NCBI GenBank assembly: GCA_043808785.1
Contig: JAZDEL010000001.1
Span: 30,001-62,000, forward strand
Length of the DNA: 32,000 bases
Source of the DNA: Candidatus Iainarchaeum sp.
GTDB lineage: Archaea > Iainarchaeota > Iainarchaeia > Iainarchaeales > JAZDEL01
Direction of reading: 5' to 3'
This document shows positions 6,270 to 25,359 of the stretch, piece after piece (within the stretch, counting starts at the first letter, position 1; the number at the start of each line of letters is the position of its first letter). The notes below the pieces were generated by a model. That model made no database searches, was not told the origin of the DNA, and saw only the letters and a program-made list of their open reading frames with translations. Both the position numbers and the translations under genes were made by a program.

Positions 6270-6281
6270 ATGCAGGGGGGA
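6268..6281. repeat. att-like direct repeat, right copy (TTATGCAGGGGGGA)
   Basis: Identical to 2687-2700. Overlaps the 3' end of the intact tRNA-Leu. Confidence 0.6.
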
Positions 6282-6354
6282 GGATTCGAACCCCCGAACG
6301 CACTAAGCGACAGCGCCCTGAACGCTGCTGGTTTGGCCGCTTCCATACCCCTGC
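6271..6354 (-). tRNA. tRNA-Leu (anticodon CAG), class II, no encoded CCA
   Basis: Hand-folded. Acceptor GCAGGGG/CCCCTGC with discriminator A. Anticodon arm CAGCG-TTCAGGG-CGCTG. Long variable arm (TCGCTTAGTGCGTTC). T arm GGGGG-TTCGAAT-CCTCC. Confidence 0.9.
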
Positions 6355-6505
6355 ATTGCCCGGTTTGCGCGCCTGGTTTGGGGCTGCAACCCGGCTGCCC
6401 CTCCCTCACGCACGGCGTAACCGCGGTTGCCCGCAATTGCGCCATTTGCCTGATAACTAACAATTACGAAAAGTATTTAAAGTTAGGAAGGGATTAAATA
6501 AACCG

Positions 6506-12653: not shown

Positions 12654-12843
12654 ATAACCTTGTTTGCCTTTTTGGGTTCGCTTAATTTTGTACCTTCAAT
12701 CCTGCGCCTATTCCTTTCCCAACCTCTTAATTATCCCCGCCGCCACGGCAACCTCTATCAGGCTCAAAGGCACGGCAAAAACAAGCGTCCCGGCGCCAGG
12801 AGGCAATAATAACCTTTATAAAAAACGCCAGCGTTATAGTGTT

Positions 12844-13236
12844 ATGGTGCAATACCCTTCAGTGGAGAAAATAACCGAGATGAATGCGCTTGCCCTCAGT
12901 ATCATCTATGCCAAAAAGGCTGATGAGGCAAAGGTACTGAGCAGGGCAAAAATAACCGAAGTTATCGGGGATTGCGAGGGTTTTAACGGGGACATTTATG
13001 ATAAGGCAGTTGTATTGCTCAAGGGCATAGTCCAGAAGCATCCCTTTGCCAGCGGGAACAGGCGCACTGCATTCCTCGCAATGAAATATTTTTTGCTTGC
13101 CAACAAGGCAAGGCTTGGGATTGAAGATAACCCCGCGAATGCGAGAATCCTGCAGGGCGTAAGGGAAAATTATTATTCAGATGCGGAACTTAAGGAGTGG
13201 GTAAAAAATGGCAAAATCAGGCAATTCTCAAGATAA
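12844..13236 (+). CDS. doc: Doc (death-on-curing) / Fic-fold toxin
   Basis: HPFASGNRRTAF Fido motif in a ~130-aa protein. CTTTATAAAAA box ends about 20 nt upstream of ATG 12844. The 60-codon upstream extension from 12664 has no coding character. Confidence 0.8.
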   Translation: MVQYPSVEKITEMNALALSIIYAKKADEAKVLSRAKITEVIGDCEGFNGDIYDKAVVLLKGIVQKHPFASGNRRTAFLAMKYFLLANKARLGIEDNPANARILQGVRENYYSDAELKEWVKNGKIRQFSR

Positions 13237-14604: not shown

Positions 14605-15933
14605 GTGAAACGGATGAACGGAACGCCCTTAACTCCAGAAAAAATCGAGGAATTTTACGGCGCAATGGAATTGCGAAAAGAGCTCTCGTTTAGCGAATTA
14701 TCCCCCTCCAAATCCAACTGGGGAACCCACTCATACCACTCATACCCTGCGAAGTTCGCGCCGCCTCTAGTAAAGTACCTTGTTGAAAACTACACCCGGT
14801 CAAAAGAAATCATATGGGATCCCTTCTGCGGCTCGGGCACAGTAAATGTTGAAGCACTTCGCAACAACAGAAACAGCATCGGCACAGACATAAACCCGAC
14901 AGCAATTTTAATATCGCGGACAAAGACGACCCCACTTAACCCGAAAAAACTGAAGAAGTACGGGGCAAGCCTTCTCAATAAAATTGAAAAACCAGGGCAC
15001 GGGGACGCAAAATATTTCACCAGGCAAGGAATATTAAACGGCAACCTCCCCGAACTCAGGCGGTGGTATGAAGAAGATGCATTGATGGATCTTGCAAAAA
15101 TTTTATTGGCAACTAAAAAAGTGGCTGCTCCCGAACCATATAAGCAATTTGCATTATGTTGCTTCTCATCCATATTAAAAAAAACTTCATATTGGCTAAA
15201 GACAAGTGTCAAGTCGCAATTTGATTACTCGCAAACTCCAGCAAAGCCAATTCGGTCTTTTGAGAACAGTTTTTGCCGCATGGAAAAAATGAATGAGGAT
15301 TTTTATAACGAATCAAAAAACAAAAAAACTTTTGCGAAGCTATACCGCCACGATGCCACAAAAGAAATGAAAAAATTCAGGAACAAAATTGACCACATAG
15401 TCACCAGCCCCCCATATTTAGTTTCTTATGAATATGGGGATATTTTTAGGCTCTCAACATATCTCCTTACTGGCTACGAGGGCCCCAATTACCTCAAATT
15501 CAAGCGGCAGTTTATCGGGACACGGCTTGAAAAAGAAGTCAAAAAAGAAGACTCAACACGCAAAATATTTAATGAGGCGGCAGGCATAGGTTCAGGCGAA
15601 TCCGAAGGAAAGGCGAAAAGTGCATTAAACTATTACCAAGAAATGGCTAACTTTTTCCAAAATGCAAAACTCCACTTAAGGAAAAAAGGCAAGCTTACGC
15701 TGGTCGTCGGGGATGCAGTAATAAATGGGCAAAAAGTGCCAAACGCATACATCCTCTCCAAAATAGCCGAAACTAAAGGGTTTGCAATAGAGGAAAAATT
15801 CAAGCGGGAAATAGGCAGGAAAAACCTGCCTAGCTTTAGGGATAAAACAACTGGCAAATTTGTGCACAAAAGGGACCCTAATGGGGTTTTGGCACATCCT
15901 GAGGAGTATATATTGGCGTTTAAGGTTGCATAA
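14605..15933 (+). CDS. N4-cytosine or N6-adenine DNA methyltransferase (motif I before motif IV)
   Basis: SYPAKFAPPLVKYLV..IWDPFCGSGT (AdoMet motif I) near residue 75 and IVTSPPY (catalytic motif IV) near residue 268, with a ~190-aa putative target-recognition region between them. The start may be ATG 14614. Confidence 0.85.
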   Translation: MKRMNGTPLTPEKIEEFYGAMELRKELSFSELSPSKSNWGTHSYHSYPAKFAPPLVKYLVENYTRSKEIIWDPFCGSGTVNVEALRNNRNSIGTDINPTAILISRTKTTPLNPKKLKKYGASLLNKIEKPGHGDAKYFTRQGILNGNLPELRRWYEEDALMDLAKILLATKKVAAPEPYKQFALCCFSSILKKTSYWLKTSVKSQFDYSQTPAKPIRSFENSFCRMEKMNEDFYNESKNKKTFAKLYRHDATKEMKKFRNKIDHIVTSPPYLVSYEYGDIFRLSTYLLTGYEGPNYLKFKRQFIGTRLEKEVKKEDSTRKIFNEAAGIGSGESEGKAKSALNYYQEMANFFQNAKLHLRKKGKLTLVVGDAVINGQKVPNAYILSKIAETKGFAIEEKFKREIGRKNLPSFRDKTTGKFVHKRDPNGVLAHPEEYILAFKVA

Positions 15934-15968
15934 TGGCATAATAATGTTTCCCAACAAATAGCATAAGC

Positions 15969-18533
15969 ATGGATACTGCGAATCAATTTACCCGCGTCGG
16001 CACAGAAACGTCAAAAATAGAAGTCAGAATTAGCTATAGGATAATTGACTTATTTTCCAATGGGTTGTATAAAAGCCCAAATAAGGCAATAGAAGAACTT
16101 GTGTCGAACTCTTTTGATGCAGGTGCAACAACTACTCATGTCATTTTAAGTCCCGAAGATTTGAAGTCAGGAGACAATGCAATTGCAGTAATTGACAATG
16201 GCATTGGCATGGATAAGCAAGGGTTAGAAGAACATTGGCAGATAGGGGTAAGCCGAAAAAGGGATGATAACTACCCCGCGCCAAAGGGTCGAAAACAAAT
16301 TGGGAGATTTGGAATTGGAAAATTGGCGACATATGTTTTAGCGAATGAACTTACTCACGTAACAAAAGTTGGGAAAAAATATTTTGCAACTACAATGAAC
16401 TATGGGGCGATTCCTGAGGGGGATAATGGGGGGATACATACAGATGAAAAAGTGGAGCTCCCACTAAGAGAACTAACTGAATCTGAAGCAAAGATGGCTC
16501 TTGAGCGATTTATTGGCGGAACTAAATTTAAAAAAACTGGGGCAAAACTTTTTGGGCCAGATGCCGAAGAAACTTGGACTGTTGCCATATTGTCTAATCT
16601 AAAAAAAATGGCAGAAGATCTAAAGATTGGTAGGCTTCGTTGGGTCTTAGAAACTGCGATGCCACTTAGGGACGACTTTAAACTATATCTTAATGGGCTC
16701 ATCGTAGAGCCATCAAAAATTAAAGAAAAAAGAATCGGCAAGTGGATAATCGGAAAAGACATAGTTGAGGTTCCTTCCCCCGCTACTGATAACCTAAAAC
16801 TTTCTGAAGATAGGAGCGTTAAAAAGGATTCAGAACTGAGGTATGGTTTGGAAAGTGAGTCTTTTGGAAGAGTTACGGGGTATGTTGAACTTTATGACGA
16901 TCTATTAACAAAAGGAAAAAATGTAGAGATATTTAGAAGTCATGGTTTTTTCGTATATGTGAGAGATAGGCTAATCAACATTGACGATGAATATTTTGGT
17001 ATAAGTAGCAACTCTTTAAGGCATGGTACATTTAACCGGTTTAGAGCCATACTTCATATTGATGAATTGGACGACGTATTGCGGTCATCAAGAGAATCAG
17101 TAAGTGAAGGTCCGCTGTATGAAGCTGTTAGGAATTTGTTAGCCGGATTGTTTAATTTTGTCCAAAAAAAACAGAAAGAAATAGAAGAAAAGTTAGAGAC
17201 AAGCACTCAAGCATCTGCCAGGCTAGCATCGGCACCAGATAGCTTAACTAAAAAGCCAATCCTCTACTTGTTAGATTTAGCTCTTTCTGGCAAATATTTG
17301 CCTAGGTATTTCATCATACCAAAAAAATTATCAGAAAGTGAAAAAAAATCATTTTTAGAGGAGTTTAAGAATTTAGGGTCAGATAAGTTTATAGAAAAAA
17401 TCGAAAAAATTGAAGAGCTAACTGAATCAGACAAACTAGCCCAGTTAGACATGGGAACTAAAACTTTAAGGATTAACATATTGCACCCTTTTGTTTCACA
17501 TTTTATTGATGAATATAATCGTTCAGCAAAAAATCAAGCGTTAGAATTATTTGCAATTGCTGAAGTTCTATTGGAATGTCAATTATTAGAATTCGGGCAT
17601 CAGCCAACAGTAGTAAGCGACATTCTAGGGGAGAGAGACGAGCTGTTAAGAAACTTAGGGCGATCTACGCCAAGAAGAAATGCATTACTCGTTTCGCAAG
17701 CACTCTTGGATTCGGTAACTAATGAACACCAATTTGAAGAGGAATTAGCGGCAGCATTTGACAGTTTAGGTTTTTATGACGCAATAAGGGTAGGCGGAAA
17801 AGGCAATCCTGACGGAATAGCAAAAGCATATTTATCGGCAGATGAAAAGGGTGGCGAGAAGGCGTATTTTGTAACTCTTGAAGCAAAAAGCAAAAAACAT
17901 AAAGGCAAGATAAGTAAAGATAGAGTCGACATAGCCACTATTGCGCTTCATCGCAAGAAGTATAAGGCAAATTTTGCAGTTGTTGTGGGGCCGGAGTTTC
18001 CAACGACAAGAGGGGAGAAATCAACACTAAGCCAACTGATAAAAGAAGACAGAGAAAAAAATCCCGGAAAAGGGATTACTCTAATTAAGCATGCAGATTT
18101 AGCAAAACTAGTTAGGTTATCTCCTGGAAAAATTACTCTAGATAAACTAAGGGAGCTTTTCGAGAAATGCAGCCTTCCAGAAGAGTCTAAAGCATGGATT
18201 GATAAGGCGTGCGAAGAGGACATAAAAAAAGCTCCTTATAAGGAGATTTTGAAGGCTATCGAAGTGGAGCAGAGAGACGCCCCTTATCAGCCAGTAGAAT
18301 ATGGAAGTATTTGCACAGCATTGAGAAAGGACTTTAAAATTGACCTTAAAAAAAATGAAGTAATTGATCTTTGCAAGGCGTTATCGAGAATGGCGCCAAC
18401 TTGTATTTTCGCGCGGGAAAATAGTGTAGAATTGAATGTAAGGTCTGACAAAATACTCAGTGCCATTAGTTCAGTAGTGGCTCAATATCCAGATGAAGAA
18501 CAAGACAAAATGAAAAAACTAGGCAACGTTTGA
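15969..18533 (+). CDS. GHKL (Bergerat-fold) ATPase fused to a C-terminal Mrr-like PD-(D/E)xK nuclease
   Basis: N box EELVSNSFDAG, G1 VIDNGIGM, G2 GRFGIGKLA. C-terminal FEEELAAAFDSLGF..GNPDGIAKAY..VTLEAKSKK (PD at 17808-17813, ExK at 17880-17888). Confidence 0.85.
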   Translation: MDTANQFTRVGTETSKIEVRISYRIIDLFSNGLYKSPNKAIEELVSNSFDAGATTTHVILSPEDLKSGDNAIAVIDNGIGMDKQGLEEHWQIGVSRKRDDNYPAPKGRKQIGRFGIGKLATYVLANELTHVTKVGKKYFATTMNYGAIPEGDNGGIHTDEKVELPLRELTESEAKMALERFIGGTKFKKTGAKLFGPDAEETWTVAILSNLKKMAEDLKIGRLRWVLETAMPLRDDFKLYLNGLIVEPSKIKEKRIGKWIIGKDIVEVPSPATDNLKLSEDRSVKKDSELRYGLESESFGRVTGYVELYDDLLTKGKNVEIFRSHGFFVYVRDRLINIDDEYFGISSNSLRHGTFNRFRAILHIDELDDVLRSSRESVSEGPLYEAVRNLLAGLFNFVQKKQKEIEEKLETSTQASARLASAPDSLTKKPILYLLDLALSGKYLPRYFIIPKKLSESEKKSFLEEFKNLGSDKFIEKIEKIEELTESDKLAQLDMGTKTLRINILHPFVSHFIDEYNRSAKNQALELFAIAEVLLECQLLEFGHQPTVVSDILGERDELLRNLGRSTPRRNALLVSQALLDSVTNEHQFEEELAAAFDSLGFYDAIRVGGKGNPDGIAKAYLSADEKGGEKAYFVTLEAKSKKHKGKISKDRVDIATIALHRKKYKANFAVVVGPEFPTTRGEKSTLSQLIKEDREKNPGKGITLIKHADLAKLVRLSPGKITLDKLRELFEKCSLPEESKAWIDKACEEDIKKAPYKEILKAIEVEQRDAPYQPVEYGSICTALRKDFKIDLKKNEVIDLCKALSRMAPTCIFARENSVELNVRSDKILSAISSVVAQYPDEEQDKMKKLGNV

Positions 18534-18551
18534 ATACGTGGGCGCTAAAAT

Positions 18552-19100
18552 ATGGACTCATTAAAACTTAGAAGTATTCTCGAAAATGGTGGCACTAAGG
18601 ATAACCGTCTTATTGCGGGGATTGAAAAATTTATAAATGATGAAAAGTTTCTTTTGGCCAATGACCTCAATGAGAGAACAATGTCTGCCAAACTGGCGCA
18701 ATACCTGCAAAAAGAATACTGCTCGGATTATTTTGTGGATTGCGAATACAACCGCATGTTGGACAAAAATGTAAACTATGCGGATAGTGCAAAACGACTG
18801 CCAGGTAATTATGATAAGACTGCGCCCACAACCGACTTAAAGGGGAAAACTGTCTACCCCGACATTATCATCCATAAGGAACGAAAAAGGAATAATGGCA
18901 ATTATATTGTTATTGAGGTAAAAAAGGAAGTGAATAACGAAGATAAAACACTTGATTTTTCAAAATTAAAAAAATTCACTAAGATATACTCGAGCCCTTA
19001 CTCATTAAATTACGAATGGGGCATTTATTTGGAATTTAATAAAGAAGAGTTGTCTGATGTCAGATTGTTCAAGAATGGAAAGCAAATAAATCCGGTCTGA
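18552..19100 (+). CDS. Small stand-alone PD-(D/E)xK nuclease-fold protein
   Basis: VDCEYNR .. YPDIIIH (18858-18863) .. VIEVKK (18915-18923). Lies 18 nt downstream of the GHKL gene. Confidence 0.65.
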   Translation: MDSLKLRSILENGGTKDNRLIAGIEKFINDEKFLLANDLNERTMSAKLAQYLQKEYCSDYFVDCEYNRMLDKNVNYADSAKRLPGNYDKTAPTTDLKGKTVYPDIIIHKERKRNNGNYIVIEVKKEVNNEDKTLDFSKLKKFTKIYSSPYSLNYEWGIYLEFNKEELSDVRLFKNGKQINPV

Positions 19101-19110
19101 AAAATTAGCG

Positions 19111-19254
19111 CTATTTCCTCAGCACCAATTCAATCTGCTTATTTTTCGGCTCCAGCTCCAGTTCATCGCCATCCTTCAGCCCAAGTAGGGTCAGCGTGTC
19201 CTTCGGGAGCAGTATGCCGAGCGAGTTCCCTATTTTCCTTATCTTGACCTTCAT
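19111..19254 (-). CDS. AbrB/MazE/SpoVT-type swapped-hairpin DNA-binding protein (47 aa)
   Basis: MKVKIRKIGNSLGILLPKDTLTLLGLKDGDELELEPKNKQIELVLRK matches the canonical SpoVT-AbrB pattern. Not in the ORF track because it is under 60 aa. Confidence 0.75.
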   Translation of the reverse strand: MKVKIRKIGNSLGILLPKDTLTLLGLKDGDELELEPKNKQIELVLRK

Positions 19255-19322
19255 GTTATAACTGTTGTAATAACTACCTTTAAAAGGTTTTCGTGTTATT
19301 ACATAAGTAATAACTTAAAAGG
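19255..19322. promoter_or_regulatory. Operator-like GTAATAAC repeats with palindromic TATA box
   Basis: GTTATAAC (19255-19262), GTAATAACTACCTTTAAAAGG (19267-19287), inverted GTTATTAC (19295-19302), GTAATAACTTAAAAGG (19307-19322). CCTTTAAAAGG lies about 25-30 nt from the abrB-like ATG. Confidence 0.55.
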
Positions 19323-19324
19323 TC

Positions 19325-19498
19325 ATGGTTAAAATGGACCCCTCCGTCTCCCGTTTCATCTTCGGCACAATCTGCTGGCTCCCCCTCGGCTTCTGCGTGG
19401 CGCTGGCGAGATGGGGGCGTATGGAGGAGGCTTATGCACTTGCGAAGTACAGCGCGGTGTTTTTGGCGGGGGCCAGCATAGCGGGATGGCTTGGTTAA
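19325..19498 (+). CDS. Candidate 57-aa membrane protein
   Basis: MVKMDPSVSRFIFGTICWLPLGFCVALARWGRMEEAYALAKYSAVFLAGASIAGWLG. Its last 12 codons recur at 22013-22048 with only synonymous or conservative changes, which argues for translation. Confidence 0.5.
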   Translation: MVKMDPSVSRFIFGTICWLPLGFCVALARWGRMEEAYALAKYSAVFLAGASIAGWLG

Positions 19499-19505
19499 AA
19501 AGCTT

Positions 19506-19538
19506 GCACCGGAAATGCACCCTCGGGAGATTTTTAAA
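19506..19538 (+). promoter_or_regulatory. Conserved 20-mer + TATA module, copy 3
   Basis: GCACCGGAAATGCACCCTCG (17/20 identical to copies 1 and 2), then 5 nt, then TTTTTAAA. Upstream of dcm. Confidence 0.5.
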
Positions 19539-19608
19539 TGGAACCAAATATTTTATTTTTATCGGACAGCCTCTGCCTCGATGTAAAAAATCCTTTGGGG
19601 GTGTCTGA

Positions 19609-20826
19609 ATGAATGATTTAAATAGTTTCGGAACAGTTACTGTTATGATGGCGAAGGGACACAAAAAAATGGGCCTGAACTTCATCGACCTTTTCGCGGG
19701 AGCCGGCGGGCTGTCGTGTGGCCTGGAAAGGGCGGGGTTAAATTGCATACTGGGCGTTGACTTCGACAGGGCGGCGATGGAGACCTTCAAAAGGAACCAC
19801 CCGAACGCCGAGGTCTTCGTGGGCGACATAGCGAAGCTCGACGATGAAACCGCGCTTAGGCTGACAAAAAACAGGGAGGTCGACCTCGTGTGTGGCGGCC
19901 CGCCGTGCCAGGGCCTTTCAACGGTGGGCAAGGGGATTCCAAACGACCCCCGAAACCTGCTTTTTCTGCAGTTTGTGAGGCTGGTGAAACTTTTTTCCCC
20001 GAAATACATAATGCTGGAAAATGTGACCGGGTTGCTGGGCAAAAAGAACCGGAACATCCTTAATGGCATAATGTCCGAGTTCGAAAAACTGGGCTATCAT
20101 CTCGATGTCCAGGTGCTGTCGGCGCACCATTACGGCGCCCCGCAGAAAAGAAGGAGGACGATTTTCATAGGGAACAGGATGGGCTACGCGAATATCTTCC
20201 CCGAAATAATGTTCGATGCGCACGACGCATGCTTGCCCCCCGCCAAGACGGTCGGCGACGCGTTCAAATCCCTGGGCATGGGGGACGGCGGGACGCATAA
20301 CCACGATGTCGGCGGCGCATCAATTCCCGAGGGCACAGAAAGGGAGATTATCAGGCGCATCCCAGAGGGGCGGTATATCCGCTATGAAAGCGACGAACTC
20401 GAGCTTCTGCCGAAGGAACTGCATCTTGGCGTTGACTGGCGCACAATTCAGGAGGGCAGGCTGCGGCAGGCGAAATACAGGAGGCTCCACAGGGATGAGC
20501 CCTCCCCGACAATAATGACCGACGGGCACACATACTACCACCCGATTGAGGACAGATTCATCACCGTGAGGGAGGGCGCGGCTATACAGGGCTTTCCCAA
20601 TGATTTCGTGTTCGAGGGCACGGTCTCGCAGCAGTGGAGGCAGGTCGGCAACGCCGTTCCGCCGCCGCTTGCGGAGGCGATCGGGAAGGCGATACTGAAA
20701 ATGGAACTCGAGAAAAATGGAACAATACCGCGGACCAAGGATTTGGAGGGGATACGGAGCCACGCGTTCAATTACAAAACAAAATCAAACACAAACAGGG
20801 GACAACAGAAATTATTGGTTAGATAA
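19609..20826 (+). CDS. dcm: DNA (cytosine-5)-methyltransferase
   Basis: Motif I FIDLFAGAGG, IV GGPPCQGLS, VI ENV, VIII QKRRRTIFIG, X GNAVPPPLA. Confidence 0.92.
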   Translation: MNDLNSFGTVTVMMAKGHKKMGLNFIDLFAGAGGLSCGLERAGLNCILGVDFDRAAMETFKRNHPNAEVFVGDIAKLDDETALRLTKNREVDLVCGGPPCQGLSTVGKGIPNDPRNLLFLQFVRLVKLFSPKYIMLENVTGLLGKKNRNILNGIMSEFEKLGYHLDVQVLSAHHYGAPQKRRRTIFIGNRMGYANIFPEIMFDAHDACLPPAKTVGDAFKSLGMGDGGTHNHDVGGASIPEGTEREIIRRIPEGRYIRYESDELELLPKELHLGVDWRTIQEGRLRQAKYRRLHRDEPSPTIMTDGHTYYHPIEDRFITVREGAAIQGFPNDFVFEGTVSQQWRQVGNAVPPPLAEAIGKAILKMELEKNGTIPRTKDLEGIRSHAFNYKTKSNTNRGQQKLLVR

Positions 20827-20840
20827 AATGCATAATATCG

Positions 20841-21554
20841 CTAGGGCTCTATATCGGGAAATCTCGTGTCCGATACGTCCTCAATATTAAGGGGGGATTC
20901 CTTTGGCTTGCCAAGTACCTTTAAAACGGCATAGAAGGTATAATTGTGGATTGGAAAACTGTTAATTACCTTGGCTCTTAGTCGCAGGGTAAACCTTGTA
21001 TCAAAGGGGGGCGCGCCCAGATTGGCCGGATCACACCTTAAACTATAGAACCCATAACCATCGCCAACTTGCATATAATAACAGTTTTTAAGCTCGTAAA
21101 ATTTGAAAAGAGCATCGGAGGTGGTTGTAAGGCTCGTGTCTTCAAAGTTAATCTGGTCCTGATGCCTGTCTTCAGCCGTCAATTCCCCCTTATTTTTGAC
21201 AAATTTATTTGGCTTGAATTTTTTGCCGTTCGCCACTTTCAGCGCCCCAAGAGCGGTATATTTCCTAGTCAACGGATCATCTTTTGACCAAGTCCAGCCG
21301 CCCCCTTCGGACCACTTAAAAGTCCTTTGACCATAATCCGCCTTAAGGTCCGCCTTTATCTCAAGGTTGTATTTGTTGCCTCCATGAATAAAAATGGCGT
21401 CAACACCACCGCCGGCTCCTGCCCGTTGAAAGCCGGGAGCCAAAACGCCCCTCTCACGCATAATCTCGACCACCTTATCCTCATAGGCATCGCCCTTGTT
21501 GTATGGCGCCTTTTTCTTCATGGGCTTTTTGTTAAGATCCAACTGCATTGGCAT
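20841..21554 (-). CDS. Putative type II restriction endonuclease (PD-(D/E)xK-like)
   Basis: Convergent with dcm (14-nt gap). GGVDAIFIHGGNKYNLEIKA fits D-x12-ExK. Start placed at Met 21554, where TGATG overlaps the vsr stop. The ORF-track start at 21611 would overlap vsr by 58 nt. Confidence 0.6.
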   Translation of the reverse strand: MPMQLDLNKKPMKKKAPYNKGDAYEDKVVEIMRERGVLAPGFQRAGAGGGVDAIFIHGGNKYNLEIKADLKADYGQRTFKWSEGGGWTWSKDDPLTRKYTALGALKVANGKKFKPNKFVKNKGELTAEDRHQDQINFEDTSLTTTSDALFKFYELKNCYYMQVGDGYGFYSLRCDPANLGAPPFDTRFTLRLRAKVINSFPIHNYTFYAVLKVLGKPKESPLNIEDVSDTRFPDIEP

Positions 21555-21946
21555 CAACCCATAATTTTTCCCATTGAACGATTGAAATCTTTCCTCAAAT
21601 TGTGTTCCCAAATGACAATTACCCTGAACCCAAGTTTTCTTAAAGTGCTCCTGACGGCTTTATCCCGCCTTAAATTTGCCATTATCTTCCTTTTCCAAAA
21701 GGCCCTGTTCGATTTGGGCGCCCTGTAGCATTTTGGGCAGGCGTGCCAGAAGCAGCCGTGAAGAAGGATGGCGGCATTCGTGCCGTGAATCAGGATGTCG
21801 GCGCCGGGCGCAGCTTTCGGGTGCATGGTGTGGCGCACCCTGTGCCCCTTGAGGAAATTGTGGGCTCTTCGCTCGGGCGATGTCCATTTGTAACGGATTT
21901 TGGACATTATTTTGCTTCGTTTCGCCTTTGAGAACTTGTCAACCAC
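21554..21946 (-). CDS. vsr: Very-short-patch repair endonuclease
   Basis: SKIMSKIR..TSPE, DILI..AILLHGCFWHACP, SNRAFWKRKIMANLRRD and VIVIWEH are all Vsr signatures. Confidence 0.9.
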   Translation of the reverse strand: MVDKFSKAKRSKIMSKIRYKWTSPERRAHNFLKGHRVRHTMHPKAAPGADILIHGTNAAILLHGCFWHACPKCYRAPKSNRAFWKRKIMANLRRDKAVRSTLRKLGFRVIVIWEHNLRKDFNRSMGKIMG

Positions 21947-21985
21947 GATAGTATTTCAGGGGAAAACAATAAAAGCAGTGTTTTT

Positions 21986-22048
21986 CGATATGCAAATTGC
22001 GGCGTTTTGTTCCTGGCGGGGGCGAGCTTGGCGGGGTGGCTTGGATAG
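21986..22048 (+). pseudogene. 3' fragment of a paralog of the 19325-19498 small ORF
   Basis: RYANCGVLFLAGASLAGWLG* aligns with KYSAVFLAGASIAGWLG*. No start codon follows the in-frame TGA at 21929-21931. Confidence 0.5.
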
Positions 22049-22212
22049 TAGTGATGTTACGCCAGTAGGTAATATGCGCGAAACGAAATCGTAAAAATAG
22101 GGTTTGCCTTCCTCTCAGGCTGGGAAAGTGGGTCGCGCTGATCCGGCGCATAGCCGCTCGTGAACTTGGGTGAAGTCATAACGAAGCAATATTGCTAACT
22201 TGTTTTAAAGTG

Positions 22213-23886
22213 TCATTTTTCCCCTTTTACTATTGTTTTTACTCTGCTTTTTATGTTTTCACGAGTCGTTTCTAATTTCTTTTTTGCTTGGTCAGTTAAA
22301 CGCGCCGTGTGCATAACTGCGTCCCTAATTGGTTTATATTCGTTTGCATCTCTTGAAAGACAAGCTTCTTTTATTGGGTCGCGCTTGTCTACTAAATTGG
22401 CTAAGCCATCCATGGATAAATAGCTTGTGTCATCAGGGCTTTTCCTGAGAGGAATGCTAATGTTCCCTTTATTTTTATTATTCTTTTCTTTATCTTTGTA
22501 TTTGTTTATTTCCTTAACTGCCTCACCACTTAAGTTGATTTTATTTTTTTCAATATGTTTTCTAATAAGATTTTCAGCAATGAAGCATTCTGCATATGAT
22601 GTAAAATTAAATTGCGCATCATTGGCTAACTCGTCTACCCATTTATCAACTGTTGATTTTTCTTTCTTGTCGTCATCATTTTTATCTTCATAATCTTTTG
22701 AGACTGCGTTAAACAACCCTCTGGATTTACGCTCTTTTTCGGTACGCCTTTGGTTTTCTAGGTCTCCATCCTGCCTATGTTTTACTCTCCAATCATCCCA
22801 ATCATCAAGAATTTTCGCTATGGTCTTCTCCATGTCTTTTAGGAAAGTGGAGTATTTTTCATCGTTAGCCACTATTCCTTCTCTGGCTGTTGCAAATCTA
22901 TCTATTTTATCTTCATCAAGCTCGTTAAAATGAATCTGACCATATAAATAGCTTTCGACAACTCTGGCAGTGGGGATATGTTTCAGTATATCTCTTTCTC
23001 TGAGTCGCCCATTGACAAAAAGGTCGACCCCAACCTTTTCGCCTTCAGAACCAAAAATTTTCAAGTCTTTAGGAAGCATAACCGAAGCTATAAAACCGCT
23101 CACCTTTTCATCCATGCTGATTATTTTGGATTCTTTTAAGTTCTTGAGTTTTTCATCAATATACTCGTCTTTGAATGTGTTAATATTCCATAAAAATTGG
23201 GTTTTTTCTGCTAAAACTTTTAGGTCATCAAGAGATATTTCTTCGTCGTTTAAAAATATCTTAAATGAGTCGTCAATTAAGGAAAACCTAAAATATAATG
23301 CAATAACTTTCCTAAGATGTTCCGATGTGTTTTTTATGCCATCATTTATTTTGTCAAAATAAATAATCGTCCCTTTTTTGTGGTCAACAGTATATCTCTT
23401 AACCAGATCTAAATCGAATTTTTCCAGCGGATATTCTTGTGGCTTTAAGTTATCCGTAATTGCATCAGTTAACCCAGAATTGTCAATAGTCCCCCCTACA
23501 TACTCGCCATTTTCAGTCTTCGTAACGACCATGACTTTTTCGGCACAAGATAATAGAGCCAACTTGCCTATGCCTTTTCGTCCAATATATGGCCTCTTGC
23601 AAATAGGTGAACTATTTCGGGTAATTTTCCCGACTTGTCTTTTGGTATACCCGATCAATAAAAATTTATCTTGAAAATCATTTGACGTCATCCCCTCTCC
23701 ATCATCCTTTATCACCAAGCCATCAGTATTTTTATCTATGTAAATCCACACATTCTTGGCGCAGGCATCCCATGAGTTGGAGATAGCTTCTCCGAGAACA
23801 GTTACAAAATTTCTATATAGATTTCTCCCAAGATGATTCAAGACACTTAATGAAATATTGAATGTGAATTTTTCATTATCCTCCAT
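22213..23886 (-). CDS. GHKL (Bergerat-fold) ATPase with C-terminal HEPN-like Rx4H motif
   Basis: N box GEAISNSWDA, G1 VIKDDGEGM, G2 GRKGIGKLA. The middle region is homologous to the 15969-18533 protein. C-terminal KPIRDAVMHTARLT (R521..H526, nt 22309-22326). Confidence 0.8.
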   Translation of the reverse strand: MEDNEKFTFNISLSVLNHLGRNLYRNFVTVLGEAISNSWDACAKNVWIYIDKNTDGLVIKDDGEGMTSNDFQDKFLLIGYTKRQVGKITRNSSPICKRPYIGRKGIGKLALLSCAEKVMVVTKTENGEYVGGTIDNSGLTDAITDNLKPQEYPLEKFDLDLVKRYTVDHKKGTIIYFDKINDGIKNTSEHLRKVIALYFRFSLIDDSFKIFLNDEEISLDDLKVLAEKTQFLWNINTFKDEYIDEKLKNLKESKIISMDEKVSGFIASVMLPKDLKIFGSEGEKVGVDLFVNGRLRERDILKHIPTARVVESYLYGQIHFNELDEDKIDRFATAREGIVANDEKYSTFLKDMEKTIAKILDDWDDWRVKHRQDGDLENQRRTEKERKSRGLFNAVSKDYEDKNDDDKKEKSTVDKWVDELANDAQFNFTSYAECFIAENLIRKHIEKNKINLSGEAVKEINKYKDKEKNNKNKGNISIPLRKSPDDTSYLSMDGLANLVDKRDPIKEACLSRDANEYKPIRDAVMHTARLTDQAKKKLETTRENIKSRVKTIVKGEK

Positions 23887-24919
23887 AGTTAACGCCCCCT
23901 ATGTGGGCTCTCACAGTTTTGGCTATCGCCCGCCCAAGTTTTACGGGAACCGCGTTTCCGATATGCCTCGCCAACCTCGTAATCATGTACTTATCTTTTG
24001 GGTCAATAAACTTATAACTTTTAGGAAACGACTGAAGAATCGCGGCTTCCCTCAATGATATTGCCCTGTCCTGTTCTGGATGCCCAAAGCGACCATTCCC
24101 CAAGCCTATGCACTGAGTAGTTATTGTTGGCGATGCTCCATCCCAATTCATCCTCCCATAAACCGAGCCGAATGATTTCCCCCCTTTCTTTTTGTGACAG
24201 GACAAAACTAGAGTTTTATCCCAATCACGCCAGCCGCCCCCCATGGGGGTGGCAACTATCCTTTTCTTGTTCAGTTGAGACAATTTCCTTGAGCGATGCA
24301 ATTTGTCTTTTGGGGAGGTTTCCCCATCGCTAATTTTTTCGAGCTTGCATATTGCTTGCCTGACTGTTTTAGGATTTTTATGAGTAGGGGCGATTAATTC
24401 AAGTTCGCCGAGTTTGGAAGCCAACAAGACAAGTCTTTTCCTTGTTTGAGGCACCCCGTAGTGCATAGCATTTACTGTTGAATAAGTTACATGGTAGTCC
24501 AATGCTTCCAAATTCTGTACAAAATCATGGAACACTTTTGCCCTCATTAACTGAGGAACATTCTCCATTGACACAATTTCGGGCTTGACCTCTTCGATCA
24601 GCCTTGAAAATTCATACAGCAAACCCCATTTATCATCTCGCCTCTTTTTAATGTTGTATGTTGAAAAAGGTTGGCAGGGAGCGCAACCAACCAAAACTTT
24701 AATGGCGTTCTTTGGGTAGAGCGTTTTAAGTTCTTCAGAAGATGTCTCCTGAATTGGTTTGTTAATAAACTTAGAGTTATTGTTGGCTTCATATGCAAAC
24801 TTACAAGAAGCATCGGAATCTATGCCTGCCACGACGTTAAAATTTTCCTTTACGAAACCATGGGTTAGGCCACCTACCCCGCAGAACACGTCTACAACAG
24901 CGACAGATTTGGCTTCCAT
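23876..24919 (-). CDS. dcm: DNA (cytosine-5)-methyltransferase
   Basis: Motif I VVDVFCGVGG, IV GCAPCQPFS, VI MENV, VIII QTRKRLVLLA, X GNAVPVKLG. Overlaps the downstream GHKL gene by 11 nt. Confidence 0.92.
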   Translation of the reverse strand: MEAKSVAVVDVFCGVGGLTHGFVKENFNVVAGIDSDASCKFAYEANNNSKFINKPIQETSSEELKTLYPKNAIKVLVGCAPCQPFSTYNIKKRRDDKWGLLYEFSRLIEEVKPEIVSMENVPQLMRAKVFHDFVQNLEALDYHVTYSTVNAMHYGVPQTRKRLVLLASKLGELELIAPTHKNPKTVRQAICKLEKISDGETSPKDKLHRSRKLSQLNKKRIVATPMGGGWRDWDKTLVLSCHKKKGGKSFGSVYGRMNWDGASPTITTQCIGLGNGRFGHPEQDRAISLREAAILQSFPKSYKFIDPKDKYMITRLARHIGNAVPVKLGRAIAKTVRAHIGGVNYGG

Positions 24920-24969
24920 CCTACGTTATCAGCATCAATAGGTTTTAATTAATATCGATGCGGGCAAAT

Positions 24970-25359
24970 CTACGATAAAGCACGTTGTATTCTTTTTGGT
25001 AGAATTCCCTTTTTTAGCTCGTGTTCCCAAATACGAATTATCTTCCACCCTTCCAACTCTAATGCTCGCGTTATCTCCTTGTCCCGCTCCATGTTTCTTT
25101 TAAGTTTCTTGCTCCAGAATCGCTTATTTGACTTAGGGATAGTTCCATGCAGGGGGCACCCGTGCCAAAAACAACCGTCAACCATGATTGCAATTTTTTT
25201 CGATACGAATGCGATATCTATTTTATATTGCGAATAGTTTACTCTAAATCGGCAACCTCGCCTAAATAGCATTGAGCGCAATGCCAATTCGGGCGCAGTG
25301 TCCTTTTGCTTTACTGATCGCATTATTTTACGCCTAACGGCTTTCGAGACGTTATCCAT
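24970..25359 (-). CDS. vsr: Very-short-patch repair endonuclease
   Basis: RRKIMRSVKQKDTAPE, IDIAF..IAIMVDGCFWHGCP, SNKRFWSKKLKRNMERD, IIRIWEHEL. Confidence 0.9.
   Translation of the reverse strand: MDNVSKAVRRKIMRSVKQKDTAPELALRSMLFRRGCRFRVNYSQYKIDIAFVSKKIAIMVDGCFWHGCPLHGTIPKSNKRFWSKKLKRNMERDKEITRALELEGWKIIRIWEHELKKGILPKRIQRALS

Follow-up and report, generated by a model that had tools for sequence, protein, structure and literature searches.

We analysed a 32,000-nucleotide stretch of a metagenome-assembled genome (MAG) of Candidatus Iainarchaeum sp. (contig JAZDEL010000001.1, positions 30,001 to 62,000 of the forward strand; hereafter the window). It carries a Type II restriction-modification (R-M) cassette of three genes, coding for a C5 cytosine DNA methyltransferase (dcm), a candidate restriction endonuclease (REase) and a very-short-patch repair endonuclease (vsr). 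The cassette is bracketed by two diverged copies of the 3' end of a small membrane-protein gene, one closing an intact open reading frame (ORF) and the other a remnant without a start. An original prediction, made from the sequence alone, had read this arrangement as an R-M cassette inserted into, or recombined between, paralogous small genes. The features of the locus are given below in window coordinates, with the evidence for each in brackets.

19111..19254, minus strand: 47-residue AbrB/MazE-type DNA-binding protein, divergent from the small gene (PF04014, E = 8.5e-9; TIGR02609 doc_partner, E = 7e-13)
19255..19338, no strand: bidirectional promoter/operator-like spacer, 26% GC, with two GTTATAAC..GTAATAAC repeats (D6, I1) (repeat finder, blastn, MAFFT)
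19325..19498, plus strand: small membrane-protein gene, 57 aa, NCBI V1676_00325 (ORF, three paralogs, a remote homolog, hydropathy, AF2)
19441..19498, plus strand: left repeat copy, the last 19 codons and stop of the small gene, with its core at 19460-19498 (repeat finder, pattern search)
19499..19608, no strand: spacer from the small-gene stop to the dcm start; left cassette boundary and presumed dcm promoter (read from the sequence; 42% GC)
19609..20826, plus strand: C5 cytosine DNA methyltransferase dcm (PF00145, E = 4.7e-74; TIGR00675; 67% amino-acid identity to the methylase of L003-L005)
20841..21548, minus strand: REase candidate, 235 aa as annotated, its ORF open to 21611, with a D-x12-E-x-K motif (homologs; convergent C5 methyltransferase)
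21554..21946, minus strand: Vsr very-short-patch repair endonuclease, upstream of the REase candidate in the same operon (PF03852, E = 2e-14; TIGR00632, E = 6.6e-27)
21947..21988, no strand: AT-rich region upstream of vsr; right cassette boundary (36% GC over 21947-22012)
21989..22048, plus strand: 3' remnant, without a start, of another small-gene family member; its core, 22010-22048, encodes FLAGASLAGWLG and a stop (repeat finder, tblastn, codon comparison)

The bracketing pair is the top-ranked direct repeat between 18.5 and 23 kb of the window: 57 nt at 75% identity, without gaps and with a spacing of 2550 (repeat finder). Its copies, 19441-19497 and 21991-22047, are identical at 43/57 positions overall and at 31/39 in the core, and the longest identical run between them is 10 nt. 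As originally described, 19463-19498 and 22013-22048 differ at 7 of 36 nt, and both translate to LAGAS(I/L)AGWLG followed by a stop. Over the full core of 13 codons (19460-19498 versus 22010-22048), eight nucleotide differences produce one conservative I/L change and leave the stop intact. The left copy indeed forms the close of the 57-codon ORF at 19325-19498. The right copy, likewise as described, has no usable start; it is open for 39 codons behind a TGA, with a TTG 13 sense codons before the stop as its sole in-frame start-type codon. The remnant comprises 13-19 codons on the strand opposite to vsr, 45-100 nt ahead of the vsr start.

That this pair reflects chance similarity, or a chimera in the assembly of the MAG at a repeated gene, is in our judgement highly improbable, even granting a metagenome-assembled source and a multi-copy gene family. 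A 31-nt degenerate pattern covering both copies has only two sites in the 32 kb, where shuffled sequences are expected to give none, and the binomial probability of 31/39 identities in the core is 1e-11. Searching the window with the family proteins by tblastn, a check put forward with the original prediction, returned the two repeat places only, the fragment with E = 6e-5. A repeat-induced misjoin would collapse the copies rather than leave a truncated, in-frame second copy with its stop kept, and the sequences at the junction have no long exact k-mer in common. The window holds no further small-gene remnants, and no 5' part of the gene was found downstream of the right fragment.

The small ORF is a real, conserved coding gene, as had been proposed, with three paralogs, a remote homolog and a hydrophobic, helical-hairpin prediction. 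It had also been called invisible to the ORF track; to annotation it is not, as NCBI lists it as V1676_00325, a hypothetical protein of a Candidatus Diapherotrites MAG. The paralogs (V1676_07020, V1676_07035 and V1676_07050; 54-56 aa, 73-87% identity) lie on another, 233-kb contig of the same MAG. Their accessions are three apart, so that exactly two genes lie between copies; given this spacing, closely placed copies are a native arrangement of the family. An exhaustive hidden Markov model (HMM) search of 1.84 billion protein representatives added one remote homolog, P0010 (V1494_05240; 52 aa, E = 3.9e-5), from a second Diapherotrites MAG. The best 19-residue Kyte-Doolittle windows score 1.74-2.15, with one transmembrane-grade segment and a shorter hydrophobic C-terminus, and the AlphaFold (AF2) model of the small protein is a helical hairpin with a predicted local distance difference test (pLDDT) score of 86. 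Scans of metagenome and viral contigs gave no member, and across all collections searched the family occurs in two MAGs only. It is a rare family of predicted membrane proteins of 52-57 aa, restricted to Diapherotrites.

Several other matches were rejected. Large TPR-like repeat proteins in the HMM search were spurious, each matched 7-9 times through a WGRxEEA motif. A DUF6000 Pfam match of the small protein reached 17.5 bits, below the 25-bit cut-off. The match L001, from the scan of genome contigs, was a false positive, a beta-glucosidase with WGRIEEAY.

On its 5' side, the small gene adjoins the MazE-like gene through the operator-like spacer. The MazE-like protein has many homologs of 47-48 aa (80-91% identity); a search for them returned no paralog from this MAG, and the gene in the window has no adjacent toxin partner. 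Together with about 70 nt of the spacer, this gene is homologous to L006 9912-10144 and L007 2849-3050 (74% nucleotide and 87-91% amino-acid identity). The similarity stops after ATGGnnnAAATGGA, and its end at about 19338 marks where the small-gene block joins on the left (blastn, MAFFT). The divergent partner of the MazE module varies, being a DDE_Tnp_1 transposase in L006 and L007 and the small gene in the window. Three extra N-terminal codons of the window ORF (MVK) fall inside the stretch homologous to L006 and L007; the start used by the family is probably the ATG at 19334. A palindrome, CTGAAAAATTAGCGCTATTTCCTCAG, is found at 19097-19122, between the convergent ends of a low-GC 182-aa gene and the MazE gene and at a transition in GC content. 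This palindrome may serve as a terminator in both directions or mark the joint between modules.

Between the repeat copies, PF00145 and PF03852 bear out the gene content that had been read there: dcm, the 235-256 aa ORF of the REase candidate, and vsr. The insert of about 2.5 kb holds these three genes only. The dcm gene is complete, PF00145 being covered over positions 2-324 of 324. For the REase candidate we found 29 homologs at 46-57% identity, and the D-x12-E-x-K motif (D50, E63, K65) is invariant across 23 homologs. The homolog always lies convergent with a C5 methylase, whether in groundwater contigs (L003-L005), in a Zambryskibacteria MAG of the CPR bacteria (L010-L011) or in cyanobacterial Limnospira chromosomes (L012-L013). 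No model in Pfam, NCBIfam or PADLOC covers the protein, and its sequence has no match in the PDB. Its AlphaFold model has a pLDDT of 92, and a fold search with this model gave no PDB match at E < 1. We regard it as a candidate, putatively PD-(D/E)XK-type, REase. ARAGORN reports a 'tRNA-???' at 21385-21480 (minus strand) inside this gene, almost certainly a false positive.

The whole trio recurs in the same order in L003-L005, with 67, 51 and 70% amino-acid identity for dcm, REase and vsr, respectively. These contigs carry no small gene beside the cassette, and a search of L003 for bracketing direct repeats found none. Since the trio occurs in unrelated groundwater contigs without the small gene or flanking repeats, the bracket belongs to this locus and not to the cassette. 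The segment between the copies is thus an R-M unit, as the original prediction had it, and one that is mobile in its own right, the trio being conserved in unrelated metagenome contigs. No integrase or transposase was found between 19.1 and 22.2 kb, and no ORF of 18.5-24.9 kb has an integrase or recombinase Pfam match. The spacer at 19499-19608 has no similarity to the small gene, and the cassette boundaries can be placed to about 50-100 nt. The vsr homolog of L003 (5609-5986, 70% amino-acid identity) is uncalled as a gene in the three metagenome records.

The differences between the repeat copies carry information on their history. If all eight core differences arose at random, the observed bias toward silent sites has P about 2e-4 to 1e-3; if only four of the eight fell on the dead copy, P = 0.047, which is marginally unlikely. 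The original prediction took the pattern as a sign of coding constraint. The bias is statistically real under the first assumption, but it does not show a present constraint on the right copy: divergence while both copies were coding explains it, so that the silent pattern would be inherited and not maintained in the remnant.

This pattern also bears on how the repeat was formed. R-M units with long direct repeats have been described as 'insertion with long target duplication' and 'chance insertion between repeated sequences' (Nobusato et al. 2000; Furuta, Abe & Kobayashi 2010, NAR 38:2428, PMC2853133). Under the first scheme, a single small gene would have received the cassette at its 3' end, with duplication of some 40-57 nt of target and later divergence of the copies. 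We consider this unlikely here. The restriction and modification genes in a 2.5-kb insert, the direct repeats of more than 30 nt and the absence of a mobility gene agree with the operational definition in PMC2853133, and the repeats published there also overlap the 3' ends of genes. Those repeats, however, are near-identical (44/46 and 60/65), compared with 31/39 and 43/57 and an identical run of at most 10 nt at this locus, and the sequence repeated here has further occurrences in the genome, as part of a family of four members. A dead copy should moreover have accumulated amino-acid changes and lost its stop; the pattern in the core has P = 0.047 even when only four of the eight changes are assigned to that copy. 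Finally, the right fragment ends like a different paralog: FLAGASLAGWLG is the C-terminus of P0003, with the last 12 residues exact, unlike the adjacent intact gene. Target duplication loses likelihood because the repeats are only 75-80% identical and come from a multi-copy family, features that fit the 'between repeated sequences' class better.

We favour, as the probable explanation, that the cassette lies between two diverged members of the small-gene family, the downstream one having been truncated by an acquisition or replacement event. The repeats would be the 3' ends of two separate members of this lineage-specific family, of which the left is intact. On the simplest reading, their divergence took place between functional paralogs, or between donor and recipient alleles, and truncation of the right copy followed later. 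The 5' two-thirds of the right member would have been lost in the recombination that placed or replaced dcm-REase-vsr. Between the two options of the original prediction, recombination between paralogous small genes fits better than insertion into one, given the 75-80% identity, the 10-nt run, the multi-copy family and the C-terminus shared with P0003. We infer the order of events and consider two routes. The segment between two neighbouring paralogs, which elsewhere in this genome form an array, may have been replaced; alternatively, homology in the small gene may have anchored an import whose second joint formed illegitimately within the resident copy. With identical runs of no more than 10 nt, the repeats are now unlikely to support efficient excision by homology, and the cassette is effectively fixed. 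In the host, Dcm is predicted to methylate DNA, the PD-(D/E)XK-type enzyme to cleave unmethylated DNA, and Vsr to repair the T:G mismatches that arise from deamination of 5-methylcytosine.

Several observations weigh against this explanation. No empty site or cassette polymorphism was found in genome, metagenome or viral contigs, so that the polarity of the event is deduced indirectly. The source is a MAG, and the paralog array is known from accession spacing. The silent-site sample is tiny, at 13 codons. The original prediction had extended the similarity upstream of the core at the protein level (KYSAVF versus RYANCGVLF). The seven codons upstream of the core match at 12/21 nt (binomial p = 0.003, uncorrected), with a local alignment score reached by 26 of 500 shuffles; they contain six amino-acid changes, and homology there is marginal. 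These codons look decayed and the core does not, which is odd for a uniformly decaying pseudogene. The contrast may point to a true junction near 22010, or to a vsr promoter overlapping the upstream seven codons.

The better preservation of the remnant core would also be expected if the 3' end of the small gene were, or overlapped, a recombination site that captures defence cassettes in integron-like arrays, the right copy being a functional site and not a scar. The surroundings of P0010 are relevant here. In the second Diapherotrites MAG (L002, 9760-11852), P0010 and a 55-aa gene are transcribed away from each other, across a spacer with TTCTATATAGAATA palindromes. An RE_BsaWI and N6_N4 methylase pair lies immediately 3' of P0010, and a dcm and HATPase_c_3 pair on the other side. 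The layout is that of the window, but with a different R-M system. As P0010 too is directly followed by an R-M pair, R-M genes recur at the position downstream of the small gene, in both loci that can be read. This recurrence and the regular spacing of the paralogs on the other contig, two genes between copies, speak for a capture site. Conversely, there is no recombinase nearby, and the copies differ at 8/39 positions that are exactly wobble positions, which indicates constraint on the protein rather than on the DNA. The 3' DNA sequence of the P0010 gene is unrelated, and its locus has no second copy, and the L003-L005 cassette lacks such flanks altogether. A functional capture site at the small-gene 3' end is accordingly, in our estimate, quite improbable.

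A related and equally doubtful proposal is that the small gene and its divergent small DNA-binding partner form a dedicated slot for defence cassettes in Diapherotrites, the array on the second contig consisting of R-M or defence cassettes each captured beside a small-gene copy. Within that proposal, the small protein might be a membrane-active toxin that stabilises the island. If the slot exists, it would represent an integrase-less, homology-driven cassette array in DPANN archaea; and should the array on the other contig also hold defence genes, the family would mark a recurrent slot for them.

The cassette and its bracket are embedded in a larger island. Three adjacent Type II R-M-like systems occupy 14605-25359, between a Fic gene (12664-13236) and an A-type ATP synthase operon (from 25417). 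Two low-GC modules flank the cassette block:

14605..19100, plus strand: left low-GC defence module with a Type II methyltransferase, a HATPase_c_3/REase_II-like protein and a PD-Lambda-3_A-like protein (Pfam, PADLOC, composition)
22213..25359, minus strand: right low-GC defence module with a HATPase_c_3 REase_II-like protein, a second dcm and a second vsr (Pfam, PADLOC, composition)

Both modules thus combine a methylase with a HATPase_c_3 'REase_II' protein, and the vsr of the right module (24970-25359) brings the number of dcm and vsr pairs in the window to two. The original prediction had contrasted a GC-rich cassette with AT-rich flanks. The contrast stands for the flanking modules, whose GC content at third codon positions (GC3) is 0.31-0.46. 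The cassette, in turn, is not unusual: at 46-55% GC and a GC3 of 0.52-0.72 it resembles the core genes (0.60-0.72). Compared by GC3 with the ATP synthase and other core genes, the block from MazE through the small gene, dcm and REase to vsr has a host-like composition, and the flanking modules are the outliers. The 182-aa ORF at 18552-19100 (plus strand), at the edge of the left module, has no Pfam family and matches PADLOC PD-Lambda-3_A with E = 1e-20. An Rfam scan of the whole window identified no RNA family; ARAGORN calls a tRNA-Leu(CAG) at 6270-6355 (minus strand), which Rfam does not report at its gathering threshold.

Taken together, the bracket is on present evidence an ordinary recombination scar inside an R-M island and not a new kind of element. 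It provides an example, at the level of sequence, of a Type II R-M cassette fixed in a reduced DPANN genome without a mobility gene and with repeated small-gene copies as its flanks. It also documents an uncharacterised, Diapherotrites-restricted family of 52-57 aa proteins whose genes lie directly upstream of R-M genes at both readable loci.

A vsr gene is part of EcoRII-type and comparable C5-methylase systems. The cassette resembles such Dcm-Vsr-linked Type II R-M systems in that the C5 methylase is convergent with the REase and vsr is co-transcribed with it, and differs from them in its REase, whose family is modelled in none of Pfam, NCBIfam and PADLOC and whose confident structure model finds no fold match in the PDB. 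Integrative elements with an att site in a tRNA or protein gene, which restore the 3' end of that target, likewise leave a complete gene on one flank and, on the other, a displaced 3' piece that lacks a start; the two versions differ as homologs do. Unlike these elements with their attL and attR, the unit described here has no integrase and no identical core longer than 10 nt, and measures only 2.5 kb. It differs from integrons in having no recombinase, in a boundary repeat that varies at wobble positions, and in the unrelated 3' DNA sequence of the L002 homolog. The closest parallels are the systems of PMC2853133, compact Type II R-M units without integrase or transposase, whose repeats exceed 30 nt and extend into the 3' end of a flanking gene and whose cassettes occur in unrelated genomes. 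Of the features by which those systems were recognised, we find restriction and modification homologs, an insert below 20 kb without any other mobility gene and a repeat above 30 bp; near-identical and otherwise unique repeats are not found here (31/39, 43/57, a four-member family). The host differs as well, the published cases compared here being bacterial and the present one a DPANN archaeon.

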